64,000 bases of DNA, from the NCBI GenBank assembly GCA_016711215.1, contig JADJTL010000001.1:1910-65909 (forward strand). The letters are read 5' to 3'. Each line of letters begins with the position of its first letter. The first letter of the stretch is position 1. Made by a program: the position numbers and the translations under genes. Shown one piece after another: positions 4,381-64,000 of this stretch. A model generated the notes under the pieces. The model was not told the DNA's origin, did not search any database, and saw only the letters and a list, made by a program, of their open reading frames with translations. This DNA is from Pseudomonadota bacterium (lineage in GTDB: Bacteria > Myxococcota_A > Polyangia > GCA-2747355).

Positions 4381-4508
4381 CGACCCGATCCTCGTCCCCA
4401 TCCTCGACCCGATCCTCGTCCCCATCCGTCTCGGCATTAGAGGCTCCCTTCGTTCGTCTGGCTCGCGTTTGGTTGGCGTTTGGTTGGCGTTTGCCTGGCG
4501 TTTGCCTG
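4381..4508. repeat. intergenic tandem repeats: 24-bp x2 (cgacccgatcctcgtccccatcct) then 11-bp x4 (gcgtttggttg / gcgtttgcctg)
   Basis: Direct reading of the sequence, inside the ~1 kb gap upstream of argC. Confidence 0.85.
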
Positions 4509-4938
4509 GGCCTGGTCAACCGCGAATGCCCATACGGGCCTCCGTGGCTGCCTCGCAGCGCGCCATCCCGTATCGGCGCCCTTGCAGAGCAACTCCCGTT
4601 CCACAAAAACGTGGGTCTGGTTCTTAATTGTTTCGGTGGCAACGCGGCGTCGCGCCCTTAGCCGCCTCCGAAAATCAATGGTCCTTGATACCGGGCCGGA
4701 GCCGCGGAACCCCGCCCAGGAACGGTCCTATTTTCGCTGGAGGTGCGGGCTGCAAAGTTCGGGCTGCGAAGGGCGCGGCCGGCGGCACGCGATGACCGTC
4801 CTCGGGCGCCCGGCCGAGGGTCGATCGCGGCCGTGTTTCCCACGCTTGACGATATGGCGAGCGCTGCGCCAAATTGCCGCCTTTCGCGAATTGTCGTTCT
4901 TCGCAAATAGTTCTTGTTCTTGTTGGGGGGAGGGTTCG

Positions 4939-11914: not shown

Positions 11915-14209
11915 TTGCTTGCCTGCGCGAGCGGGGGGGCCGGGGCCGGGGCACGGGTCGTCCTGGCCCTCGGCGAGCGGAGGAGAACGCAGGGTGGTGG
12001 GACCGCCGCAAGGTTGCATGGCGCGCTTGGCGCGCTTGGCGCGCTTGGCGCCCGAGCGCGCGCGGTCCTGCTGACGCTGGCCGCCCTCGGCCTCGGCGTC
12101 GGCTGTCCCGGCTCGATCGGCTTCGTGACGCCAGCCGGCGACGCCCGTCGCCCGGCCCGAGACGGCGGGAGCTCCGATCAGAGCGCTGGTTGCCGACCGG
12201 CGTGTCTTGCTGGTCAGCGATGCGTCGACGGCTTCTGCTATCTCGGGGACGCCCCGCCCGCGTGCCCGGCGCAGCCGACGCGGCCCTGCAGCGTCGCGCG
12301 CGGCAGCGGCACGCAAACCTGCGCCCGCGGCGTCTGGGGCGCTTGCGTCCTGGAGTCGTGCGACGACGCAGCGGCGACGCCTCCGGCCTGCGGCTTCACC
12401 CCTCGGAGCTGCGCGGGCGCGCCGCGTGCCTGTGCTGCCGTCAGTCACCAACTACCCCTGCCGACCCACTTCAGCGCCGCCAGCGGTGGCGCGTCGTTCC
12501 TCGCCACCGACCCGCCGGAGCTGATGTTGCAGCCGAGCCTCTCGCCCGATTACACGCCGGGGCTCTGCTACCGGGTCTACAACTACGGGCTGATTCCTGA
12601 CGTCGATGATTACCCGGCGGCTACCTTCACGACGGAGGCGCCCAGCAACGCCAGCGCTGAGGCCTTCGCCGCGGCGAGCTGTGCCGCCACCGGCGTGCCG
12701 CTCGAGCACCGGCGGCCGCCGACCGGCGACGGCGTTTGGGCCTCCGGCGCACCGACCTCGAATAGCTGCCGCACGCAGGTGATCCATGCGAGCATCGCCG
12801 ACCACTCGCTCTACACGGTCTTCCTGCCGCCGAACTGGTCGGCCGACGCGCCCGCCGCGACCTACCCGATCCTCTTCAACGGCCAGTACGACCTGCACGC
12901 CAACACCTTTAGCCAGTACGGGTCCCTGCTCGCGCGCGTGGTCAGCGAGAGCGGCCTGCAGGGTCGCCGCGGCGTGATCGGCGTCTTGTGGAATGGCGGC
13001 GGCGCGGCGGCGAGCCGCACCACCAACGAGCGCGCCCTCGCTCAGTTCGCCGCGGTCATCGCCCAAGTGGTCGAGCGCTACCACGGCAACCCGCAGTGGA
13101 TCGTCACCTTCGGTGCCTCCCGTGGGGGGGGCACGGCGCTGGCGATGGCGGCCAACCCCAACGGCGCGCCCTACCGTGTGGTGCTGGCCGCGGCGCAGGT
13201 GCCGCCGACGCTCCTTGGCGACCACGCCCGACTGGGCACGGTCACCTATCCGGCATTGCTCGGCGCCGTGAGCTGGAGCACGGGCCTCGCCGACGCCTGG
13301 TTGACCGGCTGGACCTACCCGAGCTGCGCCGGTCGACCGGCACTCACGGGGCTGCGCGGCTGGCAGGCTCACCTGCACGTGCTCGTCGGCACCACCGACC
13401 CAGCGGTGGCGGATACCCAGCACAGCCTGCTCTCGGAACGCTTCCTCGGCGCGCTGCAGCGCGCGGGCACGCAGATCTACCTCGAGATCGGCGAGCACGA
13501 CCACATCGTGCCCTACCCGCACCAGGTCCGTTACGCGACGGCGCTGCGCGCGCGCGGGTTGCCGGCCCAGGTCGAGGTCGTGCTGCGCGGCGGTCACGGC
13601 TCGCTGCGCACGACCCTTGGGGGCGCGGGCCCCGCCTTCGACTACCTGGAGCGGCTCGTCCGCGACGCCGGGCTCGCGCTCGCCAACAGCGCCCAGAGTC
13701 TCCAGGCGTCGCCGCCCGCCCTGGTCACGCCCGGGCTTCGCTTCCACCGCGTGCGCCGCGGCGATGGCGCGACCGAGCTCGTCTCGCCGGCGAAGGGGAA
13801 TTACCCCTTCGCGATCGATGTGCCCTGGATCGTTGCCGCCGGCACCGGCTTTCCCGTGATCGCCGTCGGCGAGCCGGGCACGCTTTACGAGTTCTCCGCG
13901 ACCCACGTGCCCACCGGCGCCGCGGGGGGCACCCTCGCGGGCACCATCGCGGCGAACCACACCCGCGAGGATTGGGTCGAGCTGCCGGTCACGCAGCCCC
14001 TCGGTGCCTACCGCTGGGCCCTGCGCATCCAGCGCCCGGGCGAAGGCTGGCAGGAGATCCCCAGCACCGCGACCCCCACCGGCGCCCTCTGCACCACCGA
14101 GGTCATCCCCTCCGAGCCGCCCCTCACCGGTGACGCTGCCAGCGCTGGTGCCCAGCCGCCGACGGTGCCGGGCTACGCCGGCACCAACTGGGGTCTCTCC
14201 GAGTATTGA
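11915..14209 (+). CDS. secreted alpha/beta-hydrolase-like protein with Cys-rich N-terminal module
   Basis: Signal/lipobox LAALGLGVGC, Cys-rich ~80 aa, then a GxSxG elbow (FGASRGGGTALAMA). True start is uncertain (possible TTG ~12012). A 9-bp x3 repeat gcgcttggc sits in the N-terminal coding region. Confidence 0.6.
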   Translation: MLACASGGAGAGARVVLALGERRRTQGGGTAARLHGALGALGALGARARAVLLTLAALGLGVGCPGSIGFVTPAGDARRPARDGGSSDQSAGCRPACLAGQRCVDGFCYLGDAPPACPAQPTRPCSVARGSGTQTCARGVWGACVLESCDDAAATPPACGFTPRSCAGAPRACAAVSHQLPLPTHFSAASGGASFLATDPPELMLQPSLSPDYTPGLCYRVYNYGLIPDVDDYPAATFTTEAPSNASAEAFAAASCAATGVPLEHRRPPTGDGVWASGAPTSNSCRTQVIHASIADHSLYTVFLPPNWSADAPAATYPILFNGQYDLHANTFSQYGSLLARVVSESGLQGRRGVIGVLWNGGGAAASRTTNERALAQFAAVIAQVVERYHGNPQWIVTFGASRGGGTALAMAANPNGAPYRVVLAAAQVPPTLLGDHARLGTVTYPALLGAVSWSTGLADAWLTGWTYPSCAGRPALTGLRGWQAHLHVLVGTTDPAVADTQHSLLSERFLGALQRAGTQIYLEIGEHDHIVPYPHQVRYATALRARGLPAQVEVVLRGGHGSLRTTLGGAGPAFDYLERLVRDAGLALANSAQSLQASPPALVTPGLRFHRVRRGDGATELVSPAKGNYPFAIDVPWIVAAGTGFPVIAVGEPGTLYEFSATHVPTGAAGGTLAGTIAANHTREDWVELPVTQPLGAYRWALRIQRPGEGWQEIPSTATPTGALCTTEVIPSEPPLTGDAASAGAQPPTVPGYAGTNWGLSEY

Positions 14210-21163: not shown

Positions 21164-21591
<428 letters not shown>

Positions 21592-28315: not shown

Positions 28316-28371
28316 CCGTCGATCCCCTCGGTCGCGTCTCCGCCGAGTCTCAGTCGCGTCGCAGTCGAGAC

Positions 28372-29436
28372 TCAGTCGAGTCGCGCCAGGACTGCCTCGG
28401 TCATCGCGCTGGTCCCCAGTGTGCCGCCGAGGTCGCGCGTGCGGGCACCCTCGTTGATCGCGCGCTCGACCGCTTGCTCGATGGCGCGCGCCTCGGCCTC
28501 CAGGCCGAGCGAGTGCCGCAGCAGCAGCGCCGCGCTGAGCATCGTACCGAGCGGGTTGGCCACGCCCTTGCCCGCGATGTCCGGCGCCGAGCCATGGATC
28601 GGCTCGTAGAGGCCACGGCGGCCCTCGCCGGTCGAAGCGCTGGGCAGCAGCCCCAGCGAGCCGCCGATCACCGCTGCCTCGTCCGTGAGGATGTCGCCGA
28701 ACATGTTCTCGGTGACGATCACGTCGAAGGCGGCCGGCTGCGTCACCAGCCGCATCGCCGCCGAGTCGACGAGTTGATGCTCGAGCTTGATCGCCGGGTA
28801 CTCGGCCGCGACCTCGATCGCGACCTGGCGCCAGAGCCGCGAGGACTCGAGCACGTTGGCCTTGTCGACGGAGGTGACGTGGCCGCGGCGCTGCCCGGCG
28901 AGCTGACAGGCGAGGCGGACGACGCGGCGAATCTCGACGTCGGTGTATTCGAGGGTGTCGACCGCGCGCTCGCTGCCGTCCTCGCGCCGCTCGCGCAGCC
29001 GCGGCTGGCCGAAGTAGAGGCCCCCCGTCAGCTCACGCACGACCAGCAGGTCGACGCCCTGCAACCGCTCTGCCTTCAGCGGCGAGGCGTCGGCCAGCGC
29101 TGGATAGACCCGTACCGGTCGGAGATTGGCATAGAGGCCCAGGGCCTTGCGGATCCCGAGCAGCCCCTGCTCCGGGCGCACGGGCGCGCGGGGGTCGTCC
29201 CACTTCGGGCCGCCGACCGCCCCGAGCAACACGGCATCGGCGCGCAGACAGGCCTCGACGGTGGCCGCAGGGAGCGGCCCTCCCGTGGCATCGATCGCCA
29301 CGCCGCCGATCTGCTGCTCGTCGTAGCGCAGCGCGTGGCCATGACGCTTGGCTACCGCGTCGAGGAGGCGCCGCGTCGCCGCCACGATCTCCGGTCCGAT
29401 GCCGTCGCCGCCCAAGAGTACGATCGTTGCGTCCAC
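28372..29436 (-). CDS. leuB: 3-isopropylmalate dehydrogenase
   Basis: 354 aa with [14 protein letters not shown]-terminus and NLFGDILSD-like motif. Confidence 0.9.
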
Positions 29437-36000: not shown

Positions 36001-36057
36001 TTGTTCTATTGTTGTCTATTGTTGTCTATTGCTGGTGGTGTTGTCTATTGCTGGTGG
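36001..36057. repeat. AT-rich direct repeats TTGT(C/T)TATTG x4 interleaved with CTGGTGG(TG) x2
   Basis: Direct reading. Located in the presumptive promoter region of the ilv-leu leader, overlapping the 3' end of the upstream ORF. Confidence 0.8.
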
Positions 36058-45848: not shown

Positions 45849-45930
45849 CCCCCGGCCGCTTCGGGTTTTGGCCCGTCACGGCGCGCCGCTGACGCCAGCC
45901 GCCGACCTCAGTCGCGCAAGGCCGCCGCGG

Positions 45931-46000
45931 CAGGGCTGATTGCGCAGGGCTGATTGCGCAGGGCTGATTGCGCAGGGCTGATTGCGCAGGGCTGATTGCG
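45931..46000. repeat. 14-bp tandem repeat (CAGGGCTGATTGCG) x5 plus a partial copy at 46052-46064 just upstream of the moxR ATG
   Basis: Direct reading. Perfect copies. Shares the CAGGGCTGA core with the glnB-upstream repeat. Confidence 0.9.
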
Positions 46001-46075
46001 GCGCGCCGCGGCGCCGTGCTAGCTAGGCGCGCGTCTGGGTCTCAAGCGGGCGGGCTGATTGCGAGGGAAGAGGGC

Positions 46076-47061
<986 letters not shown>

Positions 47062-52089: not shown

Positions 52090-53964
52090 GTGAGCTCCGG
52101 CGCATGGGCTTTTCGGTCAGCGCGGCGAGCGCGTGCGCGTGGCTCGCGCGTCGTGGGGGCGGCGGCCGCGTTGGCGTTGCTCTGCCTGGCTGCCGCGGGC
52201 GCGCTGGCCCAGGGCGTCAGCCTCCGCTTGACGGCCGACCGGCACATCACCGCCGTGGGGGAGCCTGTCGTCGTCACGGTGGAGCTTGCCGTCGAGGGGC
52301 GCGCGGACGTCGAGTTCCTCGAGCCCACGCTCCGCGGTTGGCGCCTGCTGAGCAACAGCCTCGTCAGCCGCAACATCGAGCTGATCAACTGGCAGATGCG
52401 GCGGCGTGAGACGCGCGTCTACGAGGTGGCGGCGCTGCAAGCGGGGACCCTGGCCTTGGGGCCGGCGGGCGTGCGCCTGGCGCAGCGCGTCGTGCGTTCG
52501 AATACGGTGCAGGTGGAGGTGCGCCCGGCAGGGGCGAACACGCCGGCGGGCGCGCCGGCCGCGCTGCCGACACCGAGCGCCAGCGCCCGCGGGGGCGCGC
52601 AATCGGGCGGCTTCATCGTCGCTCAGCCCTCCCTGACGCGGGTCTACGTCGGCCAGCAGCTCGTGGTCACCTGGCGGCTCTACACGCAGTCGGAGCTGCT
52701 CTCCTTTGGCATCGAGACCCGGCCGACGACCGATGGCTTCTGGAGCGAGGACGCAGGCTCGCCGCGGCGGCTCGACCTGGAGCGGGTCGTGCTCGATGGC
52801 CAGGTCTACGGCACCGCCTTGCTGCAGCGCTCGGTGCTCTTTCCGCAGCGCGCGGGGTCGTTGCCGATCGGGCCCTTCGAGGCCCAGCTGCAGACGGCCG
52901 ACACGCTGGGGGAGGGCCCGCTGCTGCGCCGGGCCGACGGCCTGACGATCGAGGTCTTGGCGCTGCCCGCCGCGGGCCGGCCGGCGGGCTTCGCGGACGC
53001 CAACGTCGGCCACTTCGCGCTGGCGGCCCTGGTCGACCGGGAGGCAGTGGAGGTCGGCCAGGCGGTGACCTTGCGCTTGATCGCCCGCGGCAGCGGGAAC
53101 CTGCGGCAGCTCGTCTTGCCCGTGCTCCCTGCGCTAGCCGGTGTGCGGGCCTTCGAGCCGAAGCTCACCGACCGGCTGGAGGCGGGCGAAGCGGGGTTGC
53201 AGGGTGAGAAGGAGGTCGCCTACCTCCTGCTGCCCCAGCAACCCGGCGAGCTGCGGATCCCGGCCCTTGCCCTGGCCTACTTCGATCCTGAGGCGCGCGC
53301 CTATCGCGTGGCGCAGACCAAGCCGCTGCGCCTGCGCGTCACCGGACAGGCCGCTGCTGCCTCGCGCGGCGCCCCTTCGGCTCAGCCGGCGAGCAACGTG
53401 CTCGGTCCGGATATCCGACCGCCGCGCCCGGCCGAGGCGCTGCAGGATCGCTTGCCACGCGCGCCGATCAACGCCCTCTATCTCGGCCTGGCCGCCCTGC
53501 CCCTCTTGTTGCTGGCCTTGGGATGGGGGGCGGAGCGGGTGCAAGCCGCGCGCAGCGCCCCGACGACGCGCGCGCGCCAGCGGGCGATGCAGCGGCGTGT
53601 GCGGACAGGGTTGCGCCAGGCTCGCGCGGCCGCAGCGCAGGGGCGGCCAGCGGCGGAGGCCTCTGCCTTGCTGGTCGCGGCGCTGCATGAGCAGCTCGAT
53701 CATCGGCTCGGGCTGCGGGCCGGCGGGCTGACGCGCGAGGCGCTCGCTCAGGCGCTGCGCGGCCAGGGGGTCGGCGACGAGCTCGCCGCCGCCGTCGGCG
53801 CGTTGCTCGATCAATGCGATCAGGCGCGCTTCGCCCCCGGCGCTGCGCCGCAGGCGCTCGGCGTCGCCACCGTCGACGCGGCGGAGGCGGTCATTCGGGC
53901 CCTTGCAGCGGGCACCGCGGCGGCAGGCGCAAGCCGCGATCCCCGCGATGAGGAGCGCTCATGA
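52090..53964 (+). CDS. BatD-like (oxygen-tolerance) protein
   Basis: GTG start, signal peptide, ~620 aa, C-terminal TM. Position in the operon supports the call. Confidence 0.65.
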   Translation: MSSGAWAFRSARRARARGSRVVGAAAALALLCLAAAGALAQGVSLRLTADRHITAVGEPVVVTVELAVEGRADVEFLEPTLRGWRLLSNSLVSRNIELINWQMRRRETRVYEVAALQAGTLALGPAGVRLAQRVVRSNTVQVEVRPAGANTPAGAPAALPTPSASARGGAQSGGFIVAQPSLTRVYVGQQLVVTWRLYTQSELLSFGIETRPTTDGFWSEDAGSPRRLDLERVVLDGQVYGTALLQRSVLFPQRAGSLPIGPFEAQLQTADTLGEGPLLRRADGLTIEVLALPAAGRPAGFADANVGHFALAALVDREAVEVGQAVTLRLIARGSGNLRQLVLPVLPALAGVRAFEPKLTDRLEAGEAGLQGEKEVAYLLLPQQPGELRIPALALAYFDPEARAYRVAQTKPLRLRVTGQAAAASRGAPSAQPASNVLGPDIRPPRPAEALQDRLPRAPINALYLGLAALPLLLLALGWGAERVQAARSAPTTRARQRAMQRRVRTGLRQARAAAAQGRPAAEASALLVAALHEQLDHRLGLRAGGLTREALAQALRGQGVGDELAAAVGALLDQCDQARFAPGAAPQALGVATVDAAEAVIRALAAGTAAAGASRDPRDEERS

Positions 53965-54746
53965 GCTTGCCTTCGACGGCGCGGCGCCTGGCCTGGCTAC
54001 TGCTTGGCGCCCTCTTGCTGGTGGCGCCAAGCGGCCTGCGGGCGGAGACGGTGGACGCAGCGTATCGTCGGGCGCTGGCCGACTACTACGGTGGCCGCTA
54101 TGCGGCCGCGGCGCAGGCGCTCGAGCGGCTGGCCGCGCTGCCGCTGCGGCACGAGGCGCTCTTCTACAACCTCGGCTGCGCTTACTATCGCCTCGGACGC
54201 CTCGGTCCCGCGGTCTACGCCTTCGAGCGGGCCCTGGCGCTGGAGAGCGGCTCTGATGATGCGCGGCATAACCTGCGGCTCGCGCGCCAGCGTGCGGCCC
54301 AGGGCGGACGCGACGTGCTGCGTGGCGTCAGCGATCAGCCGGCGTGGCAGCGCGCCGCCAGCGTCTTCGAGCTGCGGACCGCGTGGTGGCTGACGCTCAT
54401 CCTGTGGTGGGCCGTGCTGGCCGGCTTCGTGCTCGTGCGTCGGACCGCGCCTGGGCCCGCCCGCGCCGGATTGGTCGCGGGCAATGCGCTGCTCGGCTTG
54501 CTGCTGTTGGCCAGCGTCGGGCTGCTGGGGGCGCGGATCCACCTCGAACGCAGTGTGCGCTACGGTATCGTGCTTCCCGACAAGCTGGCGGTGCGCGAAG
54601 GCCCAGAGGCGGCAGCCCGCAGCGCCTACAGCCTACACGCGGGGCTGCGCGTGCGCCTCGTCGGCGAGGTCAGCGGCTGGCGCCGCCTGCGCCTCGGCAA
54701 CGGCCTCGAAGGCTGGGTGCGCAGCGACGCCATCGGCCCGATCTGA
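53961..54746 (+). CDS. BatE-like TPR/SH3 membrane protein
   Basis: Signal, TPR motifs (ALFYNLGCAYYRLGRLGPA), TM helices, and a C-terminal SH3-like segment (GWVRSDAIGPI). Confidence 0.65.
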   Translation: MSLPSTARRLAWLLLGALLLVAPSGLRAETVDAAYRRALADYYGGRYAAAAQALERLAALPLRHEALFYNLGCAYYRLGRLGPAVYAFERALALESGSDDARHNLRLARQRAAQGGRDVLRGVSDQPAWQRAASVFELRTAWWLTLILWWAVLAGFVLVRRTAPGPARAGLVAGNALLGLLLLASVGLLGARIHLERSVRYGIVLPDKLAVREGPEAAARSAYSLHAGLRVRLVGEVSGWRRLRLGNGLEGWVRSDAIGPI

Positions 54747-54756
54747 GAGGCTCGAT

Positions 54757-54840
54757 AGGCCGCCCTCGACAGGCCGCCCTCGACAGGCCGCCCTCGACAG
54801 GCCGCCCTCGACAGGCCGCCCTCGACAGGCCGCCCTTCCC
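54757..54840. repeat. 14-bp tandem repeat (AGGCCGCCCTCGAC) x5 plus a partial copy
   Basis: Direct reading. Lies immediately downstream of the BatE stop. Confidence 0.9.
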
Positions 54841-56045: not shown

Positions 56046-56570
56046 TCAGAGCGGATCGCCTTGGAGGAAGACGAAGACCCGCGCGCGGACGCTCCGCTGG
56101 CTCTGCGTCGAGCTCGAGAGCGTCAGCTCGTTGCGCCCCGAGCGCAGCGTGGGAAGCGTGCCCTTTCGCGGGACGTTGTAGATTAGATCGCCCTTGAGGC
56201 CGTAAACGGGGCATGCGGAGGCCGACTCGAGCTCGAGGTAGGTGCTCGAGCCTATCTCCGTCAGAAAGGTCAAGGGCTCGCCGTTTACCGTGATCGACGG
56301 GTCAGTGATCTTCCCGGCTACCATCGCCAGCGCGCGGATCGGGCTCAGATACACGCGCACGGTCTTGCTCGGCGGTAGGTTGTTGAGCCAGAGGCTGAGC
56401 GTGGCGATCTGGTCGACGTGCACCGCCTCGCGGAAGACGTTGTAGGAGGCCCACCCCTCGGGCCATTGATAGTCGCTGTGGGCTGCCGATGCGGTCTCGA
56501 TCAGCTCGACGTAGCGCCAGGCGACAAAGTCGCCGACCGCCTCGCCGAGGCGGGCCTCGGGACTCGGTCG
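56046..56570 (-). pseudogene. 5'-truncated ORF fragment of unknown function abutting the IS remnant
   Basis: Minus-strand frame stays open from the stop at 56046 up to the IS-homology boundary, with no start codon before it. GC ~60%. Confidence 0.4.
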
Positions 56571-56809
56571 GCACCGTCGGCGACTCCTACGACAACGCCC
56601 TCGCCGAGTCGGTCATCGGCCCGTACAAGACCGAGCTCCTCCGCAAGCACAGCCCTTGGCGTCACGCCGAGGCCGTCGAGCTTGCCACCCTCGCCTGGTT
56701 CCACTGGTTCAACAACCGGCGCCTGCTCGAGCCTCTTGGCTGGGTGCCGCCGGCAGAGTACGAGCAAGCGTTCTACGAGGCTCAGGCTGCCCAAGGCAGG
56801 GCAGCCTGA
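56566..56809 (+). mobile_element. IS3-family transposase (OrfB/integrase core) C-terminal remnant
   Basis: GDSYDNALAESVIGPYKTELL...LATLAWFHWFNNRRLLEPLGWVPPAEYE matches the conserved YDNA..AESFF..LK.E...F.WI.WYN..R.H..LGY.SP.E.E end of IS3 transposases. No N-terminal part or start codon is present. Confidence 0.7.
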
Positions 56810-57048
56810 CTCAAGCAACCAAGTCTCCGGCGAACCCGGGGCGGTTCAGGGGCTGCAGCACACGGTCAACCTCCCGTGTGCTGCTGTGCGCCTCGTGGAC
56901 AGCAAGGCACGCCTGGCGAGGGGCAGCTCGGGCCAAGCCTGACCGTCCTACCTCCACCTCATTCAGGCCGCGCGCGGGGGGCGATCCGTGCTACCCAGGT
57001 AGCGCCGGTGCGGGCGGGTCGGCGGGCGAGCGCCTTGACGGGGGCTCT

Positions 57049-57119
57049 GGCCGATGACGCCGATGACGCCGATGACGCCGATGACGCCGATGACGCCGAT
57101 GACGCCGATGACGCCGATG
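57049..57119. repeat. perfect 9-bp tandem repeat (ATGACGCCG) x7, in frame at the start of the following ORF
   Basis: Direct reading. Each unit carries an ATG, encoding MTP repeats. Confidence 0.9.
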
Positions 57120-57851
57120 ACTCTGGCGGCCCTGACGATCGCCGAGCGCTTCTGTGGTCCGCCGGGAAGCGCCAACGGCGGGTACGTCTGCGGGCTGCTC
57201 GCAGAAGCGCTCGCCGGGCCGCAGGCCGGCCCGGTGCAGGTGCGGCTGCGGCGGCCGACGCCGCTGGCCGTCGAGCTGCGGGTCGAGCGGGACGAGCAGG
57301 GCGCCCGGTTGCTGCTTGGGACGGAGCTGCTGGTCGAGGCGCGCGCCGCAGACGAGGCCGCGCTGGCGGCCGTGGCGCCAGCCGACCTCCCCGACGGCGC
57401 GGCCCTGGTCGTCGCGGCTCGGCGCGCCAGCGGCCGTTTCAGCGGGCTGGACGCGCATCCCTATCCGAGCTGTTTCGTCTGTGGACCGCGGCGCCGGGTC
57501 GGCGACGGCCTGCGCATCTTCGCCGGACCAGGTCCGACGGGCGCTTGGGTGGCCGCGCCCTTCACCCCCGGAGCCGAGCTCGCTCTCGCCGACGGGGCTC
57601 TGCCGGTCCCGCTCCTCTGGGCGGCGCTCGACTGCCCCGGCTACTTCGCCGTCGCCGGCGCGGGAGAGGCGGCGCTGCTGGCCACGATGACGGCGGAGGT
57701 GCGCGCTGGCGCGGTGCGCGCGCTGGACGAGTGCGTCGTGGTGGGCTGGGCGCTCGGTGTGGAGGGGCGCAAGCGCCACGCGGCGACGGTGCTCTACGGC
57801 GCGGACGGCGCCCTCTGCGGTCGCTCGCGCCAGCTCTGGATCACCGTTTAG
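57054..57851 (+). CDS. hypothetical protein, possibly hotdog-fold thioesterase-like, with (MTP)7 N-terminal repeat
   Basis: ORF from the first ATG of the repeat array. Hotdog-like segments (ANGGYVCGLLAEAL; SCFVCGP). The family call is weak and the true start may be any of the 8 ATGs. Confidence 0.45.
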   Translation: MTPMTPMTPMTPMTPMTPMTPMTLAALTIAERFCGPPGSANGGYVCGLLAEALAGPQAGPVQVRLRRPTPLAVELRVERDEQGARLLLGTELLVEARAADEAALAAVAPADLPDGAALVVAARRASGRFSGLDAHPYPSCFVCGPRRRVGDGLRIFAGPGPTGAWVAAPFTPGAELALADGALPVPLLWAALDCPGYFAVAGAGEAALLATMTAEVRAGAVRALDECVVVGWALGVEGRKRHAATVLYGADGALCGRSRQLWITV

Positions 57852-57879
57852 CGCGCGCACGAGCGCGTGCCGTCAGCGC

Positions 57880-59076
57880 TCAGATGTCGTCGCCTCCGCC
57901 GACCTGCGGGCGGGCGCGCGGGCCGCGGCTCTGGCGCTGCGCGGGTGCGCTGGCCGCTGGCGCGGGCGCCGGCGCGGGGGGGGCTGCGCGCGGTGCTGCT
58001 GCTGCTGGTGGCGGTGCTGGTGCTGCTGCCGGTGCTGCTGCCGGTGCCGCCCGGGCGGGTTCTGTCGTGCCGGCGCTCGCGCCAACTTCGCCACCGGCTT
58101 CGGCGCCGCCCGCCGCACCCTCATCGGCAGCCTCGTCCTCGGCGGCCTGCAGGGCCGGATCGCTGACGGTCTGCTTGAGCTCCGGCCAGACCTCTTGCAG
58201 CAGGCCCTCGGAGACGTAGTAGAGCCCCTGGCGCTCGCCCGGCGTCGCAAAGAGCGTGACGTCGACGTTCTTGTTCAGCGCCCCATGCAGCGCACGGCAG
58301 TAGGCCTGCCACATGACGATGCTCTGACGCTTGCGGCCCCGGCCCGTGACCAAGGTCTGCTCCGGGCGTCCGAGCGCTTGCTCCATCCGGGCCTCGGGGC
58401 CAGGTGGCGCGAACGCGGCCTCGCCGAGGTGAAAGCCGACCCAATCGAGCTGATCCTGGTTGACGGCGTAGACCACCTTCGAAACCGCCGCCTGCTCGGC
58501 AGCCGTGGCCGCGTGGTACTCGAGGCTCTGGTCGCGCGCCCGAATCATCCGCGGCTTCGGCTCCGCGGGCAGCGCGCGAATGCTGTCGAGGGTCGCGTCG
58601 AGTCGTCGGCAGGTGGCGTCGTCGAGCGGTCGCAGCTTGACCACCCCCTCACCCTCGAGCCGGGTCAGGGTCGCGCTGGAATCGGTCGTCGCACCTTGCA
58701 GCCGGTGAAAGCTGCCGGCCAGCGCGCCCCGCGCCTTGAAGCGCTCCCCGCCGGTGCGGATCAGGCGCGCGACCTGTGCTACCGCTTCGGGACCCCTGAG
58801 GACCGCCAACCGCTCGTCATCGAGGAGCTTCCATTTGCCGGAGAGCAAGGGATCGGTCGCGCCAGTGCAGCTGACGTTGAGATAGGCGCGGAAGGTGTGG
58901 TCGGGCAGAAACTCGTGGCAGTGGACCGGCTTGCCGTCGTCGTCGACGAAGGCCCAGCGCCCGATCATCCACTCGGGCTTGCGGCAGCCGATAGCCGCCA
59001 GCAGCAGCGTGGCGACCAGCGCCCATCCGCATGCTCGAGCGCCTCGCGGCGCGCAACCCGTGCTTTGCTGCGTCAT
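57880..59076 (-). CDS. hypothetical lipoprotein with Ala/Pro-rich C-terminal tail
   Basis: Start MTQQSTGCAPRGARACGWALVATLLLAAIGC (signal plus lipobox). C-terminus is a ~70-aa A/P/G low-complexity region. Confidence 0.5.
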   Translation of the reverse strand: MTQQSTGCAPRGARACGWALVATLLLAAIGCRKPEWMIGRWAFVDDDGKPVHCHEFLPDHTFRAYLNVSCTGATDPLLSGKWKLLDDERLAVLRGPEAVAQVARLIRTGGERFKARGALAGSFHRLQGATTDSSATLTRLEGEGVVKLRPLDDATCRRLDATLDSIRALPAEPKPRMIRARDQSLEYHAATAAEQAAVSKVVYAVNQDQLDWVGFHLGEAAFAPPGPEARMEQALGRPEQTLVTGRGRKRQSIVMWQAYCRALHGALNKNVDVTLFATPGERQGLYYVSEGLLQEVWPELKQTVSDPALQAAEDEAADEGAAGGAEAGGEVGASAGTTEPARAAPAAAPAAAPAPPPAAAAPRAAPPAPAPAPAASAPAQRQSRGPRARPQVGGGDDI

Positions 59077-59271
59077 GGCCCCCTCCCGATCCTCGTCAAT
59101 CCCGGCAGCATACGCGAGGGCCCTGGGGCGCGTCGATTCTCTGGAGCTTGCCGTGGCCTCGGCGGTCGTGTCCTCGGCGTTGACAGCGGCGAGTTGAGCA
59201 AATGTAGGATAATTAACTACCAAGACGTACTCATCCTACAATTACCGCCACAACCGAGGTGGAGGTGAGCC

Positions 59272-59619
59272 ATGCTGGATCCCAGAGTCGACCGGCGCCG
59301 GCACGTGACCTACGTGACGCAGCATACCGAGTACCATTGCCGCGGCCGCGAATGCGTCGGCGTGCGCAACCGACGCACGGGCGAGTGGGTTCGCGACCAT
59401 GGGGCGCTGCGTGGGCGGCTGGCCGGAGCGACCGACGGTGGGAGCCCCGCGCTCGACGGCCCGCCCCTCGGCCTGCGCTTGCTCTTCGTCGGCCGCGAAG
59501 GCGTCCTGACCTCAAGGGTCGAGGCGATGCTGCGCCCGCCCAAGGAGGTGCTGGCGCGCTACGCCAGCCGCGCCGCCGCGGGTTCCATTCGCGGACCGAG
59601 CACAGCGGCCGGCGCCTAG
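59272..59619 (+). CDS. small hypothetical protein with His/Cys cluster
   Basis: 115 aa with HTEYHCRGRECVGVRNRRTGEWVRDH, a possible metal-binding ribbon. Preceded by an AT-rich operator-like region. Coding status is uncertain. Confidence 0.35.
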   Translation: MLDPRVDRRRHVTYVTQHTEYHCRGRECVGVRNRRTGEWVRDHGALRGRLAGATDGGSPALDGPPLGLRLLFVGREGVLTSRVEAMLRPPKEVLARYASRAAAGSIRGPSTAAGA

Positions 59620-60067
59620 CGGCCCGCCTTCGCCCCCGGGCGCTTCGGGGCTGAGCCACGAAGACGCGGCTCCGATCTTCTGCGCGAACTACACCGTCCA
59701 TAGTGGCTTGCGCAACGCCGAGCCGCGGCCGGGTGAGCGCGTCGAGGCGGGCAGGCTGCGCGCTAGGGCCGTGCTGCAGCACGCGCCCTAGCGCCCCCGC
59801 AGCGACGGGGTCCTCAGCTCGCGCCCCCATCCCGCGCCCCCATCCCGCGACCGGCGGGAGCCGCCGCGCGCACGCACTGGCGCTGAGACGCGCCGATCGT
59901 CGGCGCATGCCCGTGGCTGGCGGACGTCGACTCAGCCTTGCCGTCCTCCAAGGCCCTGTTCTCAAATGCTGTTTTCAGAATGCACTCGACGAAGAACCTT
60001 TTTGCTTGAGTGAAACATGATTTCCCGCGTACAAATAGTGCACGGCCTATAACGCAGGAGGTGCCTC

Positions 60068-61492
60068 ATGTCAGCGCGTCACTTCGGCTCGGTAGGGAAA
60101 GGGCGTGGCCGGTTCGGGGTGGGGCGGCTGGGGGCATTTGGAGCGCTGGGGGTGCTGGGGGCGTTGGTGGCGTTGGTGGGGCTGGCGGGGCTGGCGGGGT
60201 GCGAGACGCTGGCGGATGACAGCAGCCTGACGCCGCCGCCGGCGGTGCGGTCGCAGGCGGCGAGCAGCAACGCGATGAACGCGATGAACGCGATGAACGC
60301 GATGAACGCGATGAACGCGATGAACGCGATGAACGCGATGAACGCGATGAACGCGATGAACGCGATGAACGCGATGAACGCGATGAACGCGATGAACGCG
60401 ATGAACGCGATGAACGCGATGAACGCGATGAACGCGATGAACGCGATGAACGCGATGAACGCGATGAACGCGATGAACGCGATGAACGTCGGCGACCTGC
60501 GCATCCCCTCGACGACGCTGACGGACCTCTCGAAGTACACCTTCAACCAGGCCGAGGTGCTCTGCCCGGCGACGCGGCTGGGGCCGCTGACGGTGGCGGG
60601 GCAGAGCGCCAACGTGGTGCTGCCGCGCTGGTTGGTGCTCAAGAGCCAGTTCGAGCGCGTGCGCGAGGCCTGCTGCGCGAGCCCGCCCTGCGGCACGAGC
60701 TGCGCGCCGCTGACGGTGGCGATCGACGAGGACCTGGACGCCAACGGCAGCTTCAACCCGGCGGGGGGCGTGGACCAGACGGTGACCTACGAGGTCTTCA
60801 GCGCCATCGCGCTGGCGTGCGCGGACAAGGCCTACCGGCCCTTCCTGCTCCATCCGATCAGCGGCCCCGAGGTGCAGGCGCTGGACGCGGCGGGCAAGAT
60901 CCCGACCTTCACGACCTACTTCCGCTATATGTGCATCCAGAGCTGGGATGAGACGCAGCACAAGGCCGTCTACCGCTGCGGCAAGGGCCGGGTGGCCGAT
61001 GGCATCAGCGGCTACGCGGTGAAGGCGGGCACCAACTCCCCGCGACCGGTCTACCTGTCGAGCCTGACCTGGGGCGGCAACGTCTGGGATAAGCACTTCC
61101 AGTTCCTCAACGCGCACCTGGCCTCGATCGTCGAGAGCAAGCAGGGCACGGTGCCGGTTTCGGGCTACGCGCTCGACTACGCCTGGAACCTCAACCCGCG
61201 CGATGTCCACGCGGGCACCTCGACCAAGAAGGAGGCCGACTACCTGGCCGCCGTGGCGCTGAAGACGGCGACGAGCCGCAGCGGCGTGGCCGTCAGCCCC
61301 TACAACCGCGCCAACCTGACGGGCGGCCAGAGCTTCAGCGCCAATGAGCTGAACCAGGGCGAGACGGGCTACCGGACCTATCCCGACCTGGCCTCGAAGG
61401 GCACCCTCAACGGCATCGCCATCGACCTCAAGGTCTCCCCTGGTACACGCAGAACTGCAAATGGGCCTCGGACTGGGGCCTGCCCGAGCTGA
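60068..61492 (+). CDS. lipoprotein with (Ala-Met-Asn)24 repeat and a Cys-containing central domain; likely N-terminal part of a frameshifted giant RCC1 protein
   Basis: AGGAGG RBS. Signal and lipobox LAGLAGC, then 24 perfect AMN units, then a ~300-aa domain (CCASPPCGTSC...). This frame ends at 61492, but the frame-1 continuation is RCC1-rich. Confidence 0.6.
   Translation: MSARHFGSVGKGRGRFGVGRLGAFGALGVLGALVALVGLAGLAGCETLADDSSLTPPPAVRSQAASSNAMNAMNAMNAMNAMNAMNAMNAMNAMNAMNAMNAMNAMNAMNAMNAMNAMNAMNAMNAMNAMNAMNAMNAMNVGDLRIPSTTLTDLSKYTFNQAEVLCPATRLGPLTVAGQSANVVLPRWLVLKSQFERVREACCASPPCGTSCAPLTVAIDEDLDANGSFNPAGGVDQTVTYEVFSAIALACADKAYRPFLLHPISGPEVQALDAAGKIPTFTTYFRYMCIQSWDETQHKAVYRCGKGRVADGISGYAVKAGTNSPRPVYLSSLTWGGNVWDKHFQFLNAHLASIVESKQGTVPVSGYALDYAWNLNPRDVHAGTSTKKEADYLAAVALKTATSRSGVAVSPYNRANLTGGQSFSANELNQGETGYRTYPDLASKGTLNGIAIDLKVSPGTRRTANGPRTGACPS
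60272..60487. repeat. perfect 9-bp tandem repeat (GCGATGAAC) x24
   Basis: Direct reading: 216 nt with no variant copies. Encodes AMN on the plus strand and FIA on the antisense. Confidence 0.95.
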
Positions 61493-64000
61493 CGCCGCAG
61501 TCGGTCGCCGGCGCCTCGGTCTTCCCGATCGGCAGTGCCAGCAACCAGGCCCTGCTCGGCCTCAACATCGGCGACACCACCCCGCGCCGCTGCCCCAGCT
61601 TCGCCACCTGCGAGCCCGGCCAGAGCTGCTGCATCGGCAAGTTCTCGCTGGGCCATTATCATTCCTGCGCGATCCGCACCGACTCTACCGTCTGGTGCTG
61701 GGGCGCGGATGGCTTCATGATTTTCCTCTCGAAGGCTAACGGCATGCTCGGTCAGGGCGAGGTGGTGCCCACGACCCCGGTCGCTCTGCCGGTCCTCGAG
61801 GGCGCGAACCAGGCGCGCTTCAGCGGGGCGATCGACGTCGCCCTGGGCAGCGAGCACACCTGCGTGCGGCGCAAGGACGGCAGCGTCTGGTGCTGGGGCT
61901 ACAACGTTTCGGGTCAGCTCGGCGATGGCTCGACGATGACGCGGCTGAGCCCGGTGCGCGTCACGGGCCTCGACGGCTCCGCCGTCGAGCAGCTCGTCGC
62001 GGGCTATGGTCATACCTGCGCGCGGCGCACCGACGGCAGCGTCTGGTGTTGGGGCAGCAACAGCTCGGGTGAGCTTGGCCAAGGCGATACGAACAATAGG
62101 ACGGTTGCGACTCGCGTGGGGGCGCTGGGCACCGCCGTTGTAGAGGTGGCGGCCGGATCCAGTCGAACCTGTGCGCGCCTCAGCGACGGTACCCTCTGGT
62201 GCTGGGGCGAGAACCGCTACCGCCAGGTGGGCGATGGGACGAGCACCAATCGGCTGGACCCGACGCAGGTGGTAGCCCTCGGCACGACGGTGCAGGCTGT
62301 CGCGATCGGCAACTACGGCAGCTTCGCGCTGCGCGCGGATGGGAGCCTCTGGGGCTGGGGCGCGACGTACCTTGGCACGCCTGACGGCGCGGGCATCGAC
62401 GGGATTCCCGCGGCGCTGAGCACGCTTGGCACGAACGTCGTGGAGGTCGGCGCTGGGATGATGCATGGCTGCGCGCGGCTGCGAGACAACACGGTTTGGT
62501 GTTGGGGCCTGAACAATCGCGGCCAGGTTGGCGATCGCACGATGAGTACACGCACCGTGCCGGTGCGCGTGACGACGCTCGGAACGGCGGCGGCGGAGCT
62601 CCAGGTGGGGGGTAACCACGCGTGCGCGCGACGGCTGGACGGCCAGCTCTGGTGCTGGGGAATGAACGAACAAGCGCAGCTCGGGGACGGCGTCTACATG
62701 AACGCCAACACGCCGCATGCGGTGCTCGGCCTGCAGTGTGAGTGCGGCGACGGCGTCTGCAGCCGTAGCGAGACCCGTGAGAGCTGCCCCGTCGACTGCC
62801 GCCAGGCAAGCTGCGGGGACGGGCAGTGCACGGGGACAGAGACCCACGCGACCTGCTCGCGTGACTGCCCGGCGCCCCCTCCAACGACGGCGCTCTCGCT
62901 GGGCGCTCAGTTCGGGTGCTCGCACCGCACGGATGGAAGCCTCTGGTGTTGGGGCAACGGGGCGATCGGCGCGGCGCGAAAGGAGCGCCTCAGCCCGGTG
63001 GCCATCACGACCTTGGGTAGCGGGGTGGTCGCGCTGGCGGAGGATGGCGTGGGGACCGGCTGCGCGATTCGCGCCGATCGTAGCTTGTGGTGCTGGGGAA
63101 CCGGCCCGCGGCTCGGCGATGGCTCGTCGGGCACGCGCACGACCCCGGCCCGCGTGACGGCGCTGGGTACCCAGGTCCTGCAGGTGGCGATTAGCGACTA
63201 CCATGCCTGCGCGCGTCGCAGCGATGGCACCATGTGGTGCTGGGGATCCGGCATGTATGGTGCCCTTGGCGACGGCTCGACGACCTCGAGCAGCGCGTCG
63301 CCGCTAGAGGTCACCGCCCTGGGCACGAGCGTGGCGGAAATCGGCGTCGGCATCTTTCAGAGCTGCGCGCGCCGCACGGACGGCAGCCTCTGGTGCTGGG
63401 GAACCTCAATTGGTGGCAATCTCGGTGACGGCACGACCCTCTCGCATGCGGCGCCCGCGAAGGTCACAGGACTGGGTACTGCCGTCATCGGTATCTCCTC
63501 CGGCGGCAGTCCAGCCTGTGCGCGCACGGCGGACGGTAGCCTGTGGTGTTGGGGCCCCAACCGCAACGGGAACGTCGGCGATGGCACGACGACGGAACGG
63601 TTCGTGCCGGTGCGCGTGACGACCCTCGGGACCTCCGTCGCGCAGATCGCCGAGGGCCCAGGGAGCCATAAGTGTGCGCGCCGCACGGATGGCACCCTCT
63701 GGTGCTGGGGCTGGAACGGCTATGGGCAGCTTGGCAATGGTGCGACCGACTTCTTGTGGGGTAACGGCTACCAGCAGCTCCGGCCCGTGCAGGTGACCAA
63801 CCTCGGCACCTCGGTGGTCGATGTCGCGGTGGGGAACACGCACACCTGCGCGCGCCGCAGCGACGGAAGCGTGTGGTGCTGGGGCCTGAACAATGGCAGC
63901 CAGCTCGGAACCGATGCCACGACGGAGCCCGTCTCGTCTATCCCACAGCGCGTGGCGCCCTGCGGCGACGGCATCTGCTCACTGCCCGAGCGGCAGAGCG
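61348..64000 (+). CDS. RCC1-repeat double beta-propeller protein (2 x 7 blades separated by CGDG-type Cys-rich linkers); no own start, continues past window end
   Basis: Frame-1 ORF is open from 61348 to 64000. It has fourteen W(C/G)WG RCC1 blades and two CGDGxC...C linkers at ~62740-62880 and 63961+. There is no ATG/GTG before the first blade. It joins the upstream ORF if one C is added to the C4 tract at 61437-61440. Confidence 0.7.

Follow-up and report, generated by a model that had tools for sequence, protein, structure and literature searches.

The DNA examined here (the window) is a stretch of 64,000 nucleotides from contig JADJTL010000001.1, part of a metagenome-assembled genome (MAG) that supplementary file 5 of Singleton et al. 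(2021) assigns to Myxococcota; Polyangia; o__GCA-2747355, with the MiDAS name midas_g_5277 (PMC8012365). The MAG assemblies of that study were made with CANU on Nanopore reads and polished with Racon, medaka, and Illumina reads (PMC8012365). Near the 3′ end of the window, two genes on the plus strand each carry a tandem array of a 9-bp unit: array 1 lies at the start of a gene for a putative hotdog-fold protein, and array 2 lies in the 5′ part of a gene for a predicted lipoprotein. A preliminary description of the window had presented both as perfect in-frame coding arrays, and this is correct, as Tandem Repeats Finder (TRF) reports 100% matches for each and both genes are supported by homology.

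Array 2 (positions 60269-60488, plus strand; TRF period 9, unit AACGCGATG, 24.4 copies, 100% matches, score 440) consists of 23 full ATGAACGCG units and encodes (NAM)24, a tract of 72 amino acids at residues 68 to 139. Its two-unit pattern matches 24 times in the window, compared with 0.00 matches expected from 100 shuffles. According to both the list of open reading frames (ORFs) and homology, the array is in frame with a real gene, which starts at 60068 on the plus strand and extends beyond the end of the window. From its N terminus, the gene encodes a signal peptide, a lipobox with Cys45, a linker of 22 amino acids, the (NAM)24 tract, an unannotated domain of about 400 amino acids (domain X), and RCC1 propellers. 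A Shine-Dalgarno sequence, GGAGG (60057-60061, plus strand), lies 6 nt 5′ of the ATG at 60068, and sequence comparison revealed that the surrounding GGAGGTGCCTCATG is common to the window gene and a paralogue in a sister MAG. In translation, the signal peptide and the lipobox L-A-G-C occupy 60068-60202 (plus strand), with the Cys45 codon at 60200-60202. Residues 1 to 45 read MSARHFGSVGKGRGRFGVGR...LAGLAGC and have the features of a lipoprotein signal and lipobox, and every complete family member in the alignment has an equivalent lipobox. The product of the gene is, by these sequence features, a predicted lipoprotein and a substrate of signal peptidase II. By translation and alignment, the linker, ETLADDSSLTPPPAVRSQAASS (60203-60268, plus strand), connects the lipid anchor to the repeat tract. 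The preliminary description was therefore right about a Met-rich tract of 72 amino acids in the N terminus of the mature lipoprotein but not about its position directly behind the lipobox, as the tract begins 22 residues past Cys45.

Domain X (60489-61680, end approximate, plus strand) was delimited by family alignments. It is conserved, contains Cys, and carries the motifs YAWNLNPRD.H, ALKTATSR.GV, ELNQGE, and RCPS. Sequence and profile searches returned no Pfam, NCBIfam, or PDB relative of it, and an exhaustive HMMER search of 1.84 billion cluster representatives yielded only 45 relatives; the few that are named all come from Myxococcota or “Deltaproteobacteria” MAGs. The lipoprotein ORF apparently stops at 61492. 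In a tblastn comparison, the full-length paralogue L106 (1316 aa) can be followed in window frame 2 as far as 61441 (88% identity), and its alignment resumes in window frame 1 at 61351-63999. The frame switch occurs at a C4 run (61437-61440, plus strand), where five Cs would keep the frame, and this run is most likely a nanopore homopolymer error that divides one gene into two ORFs. The remainder of the gene is a region of RCC1-repeat β-propellers assigned by Pfam (61700-64000, plus strand, running off the window end). The WD40_RLD, RCC1, and RCC1_2 matches have E values of 1e−91 to 1e−119, above the Pfam gathering thresholds (window 61441-63999), and the region is collinear with the L106 paralogue, which also scores as RCC1. 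Matches of the repeat tract itself to Plasmodium_HRP, Forkhead_N, and EntC were rejected as low-complexity hits far below the Pfam and NCBIfam cutoffs, and a protein search with the tract included returned only unrelated low-complexity proteins.

Residual homopolymer frameshifts occur throughout these nanopore MAGs. Single-base indels, often homopolymeric, split genes not only at window 61437-61440 but also in the sister-MAG loci L001 (5165-5215), L004 (4430-4620), and L003 (2897-2920). Several sister-MAG arrays lack a single nucleotide in places (GCG-TGAAC), probably through sequencing error.

The window lipoprotein has few homologues in a database of 5.8 billion proteins, namely, fragments from the sister MAG JADJDT and from a 5-kb contig. 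JADJDT (Aved_18-Q3-R54-62_MAXAC.289) belongs to the same order as the window MAG and to a different species cluster. We scanned 185,579 species-representative genomes for ATGAACGCG arrays, and the resulting counts are lower bounds; JADJDT contains at least nine distinct loci with such arrays, all at the same gene position as the array in the window. In these loci, a signal peptide, a lipobox, and a linker precede the array, and the conserved sequence LRIPSTTLTDL..YT..Q.E.LCP.T follows it. TRF counts 25.4 copies in L001, 19.1 in L002, 18.7 in L003, and 21.7 in L004. Five complete JADJDT arrays span 15 to 26 units (units were counted in L001, L043, L061, L106, L114, and L118), and L122 was left unsized. 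Subfamily A has 25 MNA-like units in the window gene, 26 in L001, 25 in L106, 26 in L114, and 23 in L061, and subfamily B has 15 to 19. The DNA flanking the JADJDT arrays is 69 to 84% identical to that of the window, and the repeat units of the arrays are identical. Copy number does differ among close relatives, by 1 to 3 units, but the range is narrow.

The same comparison bears on the quality of the assembly. Collapse or expansion of the repeats during assembly had been named as a possible objection. Array 2 is not an assembly artifact, because the repeat is confirmed in the independently assembled sister MAG and perfect runs of its unit are found in Illumina-only contigs. These activated-sludge contigs terminate within runs of 7 to 13 perfect units, in support of a genuine homogeneity; short-read assemblies break at ATGAACGCG arrays because of the long perfect runs.

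A metagenome scan for four consecutive units found 23 loci. Among them are six complete soil-metagenome genes (L126, L129, L133, L140, L145, and L147) with 59 to 65% GC and tracts of 23 to 25 units. Their proteins share about 43% identity with the window gene product over domain X and have the same lipoprotein architecture but without RCC1 repeats. The soil units differ from ATGAACGCG almost only synonymously (ATGAATGCG, ATGAACGCA/GCC/GCT). More distant homologues have, at the position of the tract in the window gene, a degenerate tract of period 3, [M/L/V]-N-[A/S/T]. It is MNA/LNA in P0133, (MNS) of about 11 units in P0145, (LNS/LNT) of about 33 units in P0146, VNA/LNA in P0160, and a short MNA run in P0139, while P0153 and P0166 have xNxS tracts of period 4. 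The pattern kept across the family is a hydrophobic residue, Asn, and a small residue. The gene neighborhoods of sludge and soil members have no conserved partner genes among those examined.

Some loci differ in context. The subfamily B loci L002 (1-2324) and L003 (381-2411) adjoin a large gene for a BNR/Ycf48-like β-propeller, which contains 123-bp tandem repeats (4.4 to 4.9 copies, 80 to 83% matches). Arrays of ATGAACGCG with at least 12 to 14 units, located at contig ends, are also found in a lower-GC context in L116 (2389-2524), L135, and L144 (1159-1302), a group that includes a contig binned as Verrucomicrobiaceae. There, the MNA frame lacks a preceding lipobox and closes one codon before the array, and another frame would read MS(DER)n. 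These three arrays may belong to another gene family or result from misassembly at the repeat.

The divergent soil units allow the peptide and the DNA of the tract to be considered separately. In 174 soil MNA units from nine loci, with array edges set by similarity to MNA, we counted 75 synonymous and 7 nonsynonymous nucleotide differences. Of the possible single changes in a unit, 4 of 27 are synonymous, which gives a binomial P of ~1e−53, with the caveat that units and loci are not independent. Array length is 23 to 26 units across lineages with only about 43% protein identity. By this comparison, the peptide sequence of the tract and its length are shown to be under purifying selection. Because the soil units vary almost only synonymously and their number stays at 23 to 25, the tract is, as read from these alignments, an old selected protein module of constrained length and not a by-product of recent slippage alone. 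The maintenance of 23 to 26 units at this divergence is also at odds with a hypervariable variable-number tandem repeat.

In the activated-sludge lineage, the DNA of the arrays is more uniform than codon bias would account for. Outside the array, GCG accounts for 63% of the Ala codons of the window gene and AAC for 85% of its Asn codons, and the chance of one uniform ATGAACGCG array under the gene’s own codon usage is (0.54)^23, or ~6e−7. All 23 window units are identical, and uninterrupted perfect runs of 14 to 24 units (126 to 216 bp) are present in five of the nine JADJDT loci, while the remaining four carry unit variants or 1-nt indels. The edge units of the arrays are degenerate and their interiors are perfect, which is a classic signature of slippage or unequal exchange. 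Because the perfect arrays exceed the expectation from codon bias, their homogeneity likely points to ongoing slippage in this lineage, as the preliminary description had proposed, or to unequal exchange or conversion. Such processes would keep the arrays of the activated-sludge Polyangia identical. The RNA of array 2 is predicted to fold into a long imperfect hairpin through CGCG pairing (z = −4.15 versus shuffles); the CGCG palindrome in each unit would confer hairpin potential and may favor slippage. Under this mechanism, the copy number of array 2 would drift by a few units inside the selected range, and a 9-bp unit would provide no on/off switching.

The earlier suggestion of phase variation finds no support here, since steps of 9 bp leave the reading frame intact and both arrays lie outside any recognizable promoter spacer. 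A promoter search found only one promoter-like site, at 59213-59242, which overlaps neither array. In the contingency loci of Haemophilus and Neisseria, slippage-prone perfect repeats likewise lie in or near genes for surface proteins. The tetranucleotide and homopolymeric repeats of those loci, however, are not multiples of 3 or are located in promoter spacers, and therefore their slippage leads to switching, whereas the window units are 9 bp long and in frame; neither window array acts on reading frame or promoter spacing in the manner of a phase-variable locus.

Array 1 (57050-57121, plus strand; TRF period 9, unit GCCGATGAC, 8.0 copies, 100% matches, score 144) has a different history. It consists of seven full ATGACGCCG units followed by ATGAC, and its two-unit pattern matches 8 times in the window, compared with 0.02 expected (100 shuffles). 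As the preliminary description stated, the array offers eight possible in-frame start codons (57054...57117). No start is possible before the array because of an in-frame TGA at 57036-57038; in the sequence, this stop is followed by the G-run GGGGG at 57042-57046 (both within 57036-57046, plus strand), and five open codons lie upstream of the array. No Shine-Dalgarno-like element is present other than the G-run, which is located 7 nt before the first ATG. Read from that ATG, the gene (ORF1; 57054-57851, plus strand) encodes 265 amino acids with an N-terminal (MTP)7 extension, while the NCBI annotation (IPL40_00225) begins at the seventh ATG and has 247 amino acids. ORF1 has 4400 homologue matches, and the proteins of its family are about 229 to 250 amino acids long. 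Its AlphaFold2 model has a predicted local distance difference test (pLDDT) score of 94, with residues 1 to 22 lacking secondary structure, and displays a double hotdog fold whose best Foldseek matches are TesB, ACOT12, and FatA (E of ~1e−8, template modeling score of ~0.5 to 0.6). There is no Pfam assignment (only 4HBT_3, E = 0.13, below the cutoff) and no NCBIfam match. The model suggests that ORF1 is a cytoplasmic double-hotdog, thioesterase-like (TesB/thioesterase II-like) protein.

The closest ORF1 homologues found (64 to 69% identity) start with MTNTTTPLTIAERF, MAIAVNTTLTIAERY, and similar sequences and have no repeat. In the consensus of 41 homologues, six residues precede TIA, which matches a start at the eighth ATG (MTLAAL-TIAERF); homologue N termini and consensus thus mark this codon (57117-57119, plus strand) as the probable ancestral start. 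In TRF phase, the unit of array 1 is GCCG+ATGAC, so that the start codon and its four upstream bases were copied. Array 1 is absent from the homologues in the searched databases, and its 3′ junction is absent from the scanned metagenome collection. Among the matches listed, arrays of 6 to 8 ATGACGCCG units have also arisen independently in a Burkholderiales MAG, a Verrucomicrobiales MAG, and a Streptomyces genome, and the Burkholderiales array also ends in MTL... at an apparent gene start. Because the upstream G-run accompanies the first ATG alone, translation most likely starts at 57054, which would add a disordered (MTP)7 tail. Array 1 looks like an independent, lineage-specific, sporadic expansion that is tolerated, and its functional effect is probably near neutral or small.

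It could alternatively be argued that the number of AUGACGCCG units tunes initiation through multiple starts, an unstructured leader, or the distance to the ribosome-binding site. The eight in-frame AUGs and the retention of the G-run upstream of the first AUG only would suit such regulation, as would the RNA of array 1, which is less structured than shuffles (z = +2.15), as in regions of efficient initiation. We nevertheless regard a regulatory role as unlikely, since such an array was seen in none of the homologues from the searched databases, the junction is missing from the scanned metagenomes, and the same unit expands in unrelated genes and genomes, as expected of sporadic mutation rather than of a conserved device.

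The preliminary description had also considered the units of the two arrays to be related. Outside the ATG, matches are limited to 3 of 6 positions, the level expected by chance at 70% GC. Moreover, the array 2 unit is ancient and shared across its family, while array 1 is local and absent from homologues. The sequences of arrays 1 and 2 thus lend no support to a common origin, and the only apparent link between them is a genome that is generally prone to slippage.

Two further features adjoin ORF1. A fragment of an IS3-type transposase (C-terminal integrase core, 106 aa; 56489-56809, plus strand; Pfam rve_3, E = 5e−10, above the cutoff) belongs to a degraded or frameshifted IS3-type element at 56046-56942, and the readable rve_3 fragment lies 240 bp upstream of array 1. 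On the minus strand, 57880-59223 encodes a predicted lipoprotein of 447 amino acids with an LAAIGC lipobox and no Pfam match. Its C-terminal tail is rich in Ala and Pro and contains imperfect GCA/GCC-type repeats (TRF 57994-58049, plus strand).

The explanation of both arrays that we favor, with moderate confidence, is that the Met-Asn-Ala tract is a functional module, likely a stalk, and that array 1 is an independent, near-neutral expansion of a start codon. Most likely, the tract serves as a stalk or spacer that separates the lipid anchor from the globular domains by a defined length. In the AlphaFold2 model (5 sequences), residues 61 to 136 form one helix with a pLDDT of 59 to 83. As a single α-helix, the stalk would be ~11 nm long and would set the distance of the globular domains from the membrane.

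The closest design analogues of the array 2 protein would be the H.8 lipoproteins of Neisseria and, for the idea of a stalk, Braun’s lipoprotein (Lpp). In Neisseria, Lip is composed of AAEAP pentapeptide repeats, and Laz is an azurin with an AAEAP-rich N-terminal linker. As in the window gene, a lipobox is followed by short, near-perfect peptide repeats that derive from tandem DNA repeats, and in Laz the repeats separate the lipid anchor from a globular domain. The H.8 unit, however, has five residues (Ala/Glu/Pro) instead of three (Met/Asn/Ala), the attached domain and the phylum are different, and H.8 lipoproteins are not known to form a multigene family of at least nine members, unlike the loci of JADJDT. 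Braun’s lipoprotein is a helical rod with a lipid anchor that determines a distance in the cell envelope by its length, and it serves here as a working analogy for the stalk. It differs in being a heptad coiled coil without DNA repeats, whereas the period-3 pattern of the window protein cannot form a canonical coiled coil.

Several points weigh against this interpretation. A role as a stalk is inferred from position, regularity, conservation of length, and one AlphaFold2 model (5 sequences), and outside the helix the model of the lipoprotein is unusable (mean pLDDT of 37). The (LNS)n and (VNA)n tracts of distant members are poor helix formers, and an exact period of 3 is as compatible, or more so, with a polyproline-II-like or other non-α structure as with a helix. 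In distant members, the tract varies widely in length, from ~5 to 33 units. The MNA clade is almost without changes of Met to Leu, Val, or Ile, although 6 of 9 ATG changes would yield one. Finally, polishing could slightly inflate the perfect homogeneity of the arrays, and the coverage would be ~10 to 12×, a value suggested by supplementary-table columns whose labels were inferred.

The near-constancy of Met in the MNA clade raises the alternative, already put forward in the preliminary description, of a chemistry specific to Met, with (MNA)24 serving as an MxxM ladder that binds Cu(I) or Ag(I) in the periplasm or at the surface, or as a sacrificial sink for oxidants. The tract offers 24 Met residues at an exact i,i+3 spacing in a secreted lipoprotein. 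Not a single interior Met is changed in the six complete soil arrays, where synonymous sites are free to vary, and the partial arrays of the 174-unit soil set have only 1 or 2 Met changes. Known Met-rich Cu(I) motifs (the MxxM “Mets” motifs of Ctr1, the inserts of CueO, CopA, and PcoA, and the repeats of CopB) share the MxxM spacing and the extracytoplasmic location. Those motifs, however, are short and irregular, usually include His or Asp, and go together with genes for copper resistance, while the tract has no His, Cys, or Asp ligands. In the window family, the Met position is occupied by Leu or Val in the (LNS/LNT)n of P0146 and the (VNA/LNA)n of P0160 and is mixed in the MNA/LNA of P0133, so that Met is kept within the MNA clade only and not, as would be expected of Cu(I)-binding proteins, across the homologues. 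The neighbors examined encode the hotdog protein, unknown lipoproteins, tRNA synthetases, and acyl-CoA enzymes, among others, and include no genes for copper homeostasis, copper resistance, or methionine sulfoxide reductase. A Met-specific role is weakened by the Leu and Val of distant homologues and by the unrelated neighbors, and on this sequence evidence we consider it improbable.

We assign a similarly small probability to the possibility that the hydrophobic-Asn-small tract is a novel regular rod with a function of its own and that the shared arrays also act as recombination cassettes through which anchors and effector domains are exchanged. Such a rod could take the form of a prism with three faces (polyproline-II or 3-10-like) or of an oligomeric stalk that has a ladder of Asn and a continuous stripe of methionine. 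It could serve as a distance ruler in the myxobacterial envelope or as a surface that binds metals or ligands.

Recombination is also central to the proposal that these genes constitute a variable lipoprotein family of the contingency type, in which the identical arrays are hot spots of copy-number change and recombination that generate size or mosaic variants. One genome holds at least nine members with identical units, the perfect runs of 126 to 216 bp in five of nine loci are long enough for homologous recombination, and copy numbers differ among members (15 to 26). Furthermore, in contig L142 a 5′ part resembling L106 is connected through an array of six units with a 3′ part resembling L114. 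L142, however, is a short-read contig, and its 6 to 7 units (~55 to 63 bp) resemble a k-mer collapse; lengths cluster tightly at 23 to 26 units in subfamily A and the soil relatives; and no promoter repeat or invertible element was found; 9-bp units cannot switch the frame. The Vlp, Vsa, and Vsp lipoproteins of Mycoplasma, in which repeat copy number changes by slippage, resemble the JADJDT loci in forming multigene families of lipoproteins with in-frame tandem repeats. In the mycoplasmal proteins, however, longer units form most of the mature protein, whereas the window protein carries large globular domains. They also vary widely in length and have an on/off switch (a promoter poly-A tract or site-specific inversion), whereas copy numbers in the window family cluster at 23 to 26 and at 15 to 19 and no switch element was seen. 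On balance, a family of the contingency type seems unlikely. With regard to L142 itself, the array of this short-read activated-sludge contig (3540-3602) has a length near that of a typical largest k-mer. A comparison of 5′ and 3′ identities among the paralogues gave L142 as the one apparent mosaic; it was set aside as evidence of recombination, as it is probably a collapsed, chimeric short-read assembly.

Less probable still is a neutral low-complexity filler, that is, a by-product of slippage tolerated in a flexible tether that does not require a particular sequence: lipoprotein N-terminal tethers are commonly disordered and tolerate insertions, and the window holds several other perfect short arrays in a seemingly slippage-prone genome, but interior variation of the tract is exclusively synonymous, its length is kept across lineages at ~43% protein identity, and it is retained in every complete family member examined.

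The genome appears to be generally rich in short perfect repeats, and several are found elsewhere in the window. An array with an 11-bp period, (GGCTGAAGCAG)×4.9 (95% matches; 21164-21217), ends ~37 bp upstream of the ATG at 21254 of a PII/GlnB-like gene, and its helical-turn period suggests direct repeats bound by a regulator or a promoter-proximal variable repeat. A perfect 14-bp array, (GCAGGGCTGATTGC)×5.1, occupies 45930-46000, and an extra copy of GGGCTGATTGC lies at 46051-46061, just upstream of an ATG at 46077. The core AGGGCTGA is common to the 21164 and 45930 arrays; the window contains 11 copies of this 8-mer (2.0 expected), of which 8 are inside the two arrays. A third array, (CTCGACAGGCCGCC)×6.1 (14 bp, 98% matches; 54751-54836), is intergenic and directly follows the stop of a gene with TPR and SH3 domains (53961-54746). 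Further short arrays are located at 4465-4509 (11 bp ×4), 28327-28384 (11 bp ×5), 36005-36057 (10/19 bp), and 12019-12051 (9 bp ×3.7); the last is perfect, in frame, and within a gene. Rfam and tRNA scans gave no matches.

Taken alone, array 1 is an ordinary sporadic microsatellite expansion. Arrays such as array 2 have a practical consequence, in that they break or collapse short-read assemblies and can yield chimeric contigs, and genes can be split in nanopore MAGs. We know of no precedent for a conserved tripeptide-repeat tract in a lipoprotein, and a full-text search for the peptide repeat in the literature collection used here found none, the string matches being incidental and in unrelated papers on neurosurgery and hemodynamics. 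Because such arrays get flagged as contingency loci in genome scans, array 2 is a cautionary example: a perfect coding array may be an old selected module kept uniform by concerted evolution and not a hypervariable switch. The gene that carries it represents a new, unannotated family of lipoproteins, from Myxococcota where its members are named, whose hallmark is a tripeptide-repeat tract conserved in both sequence and length.

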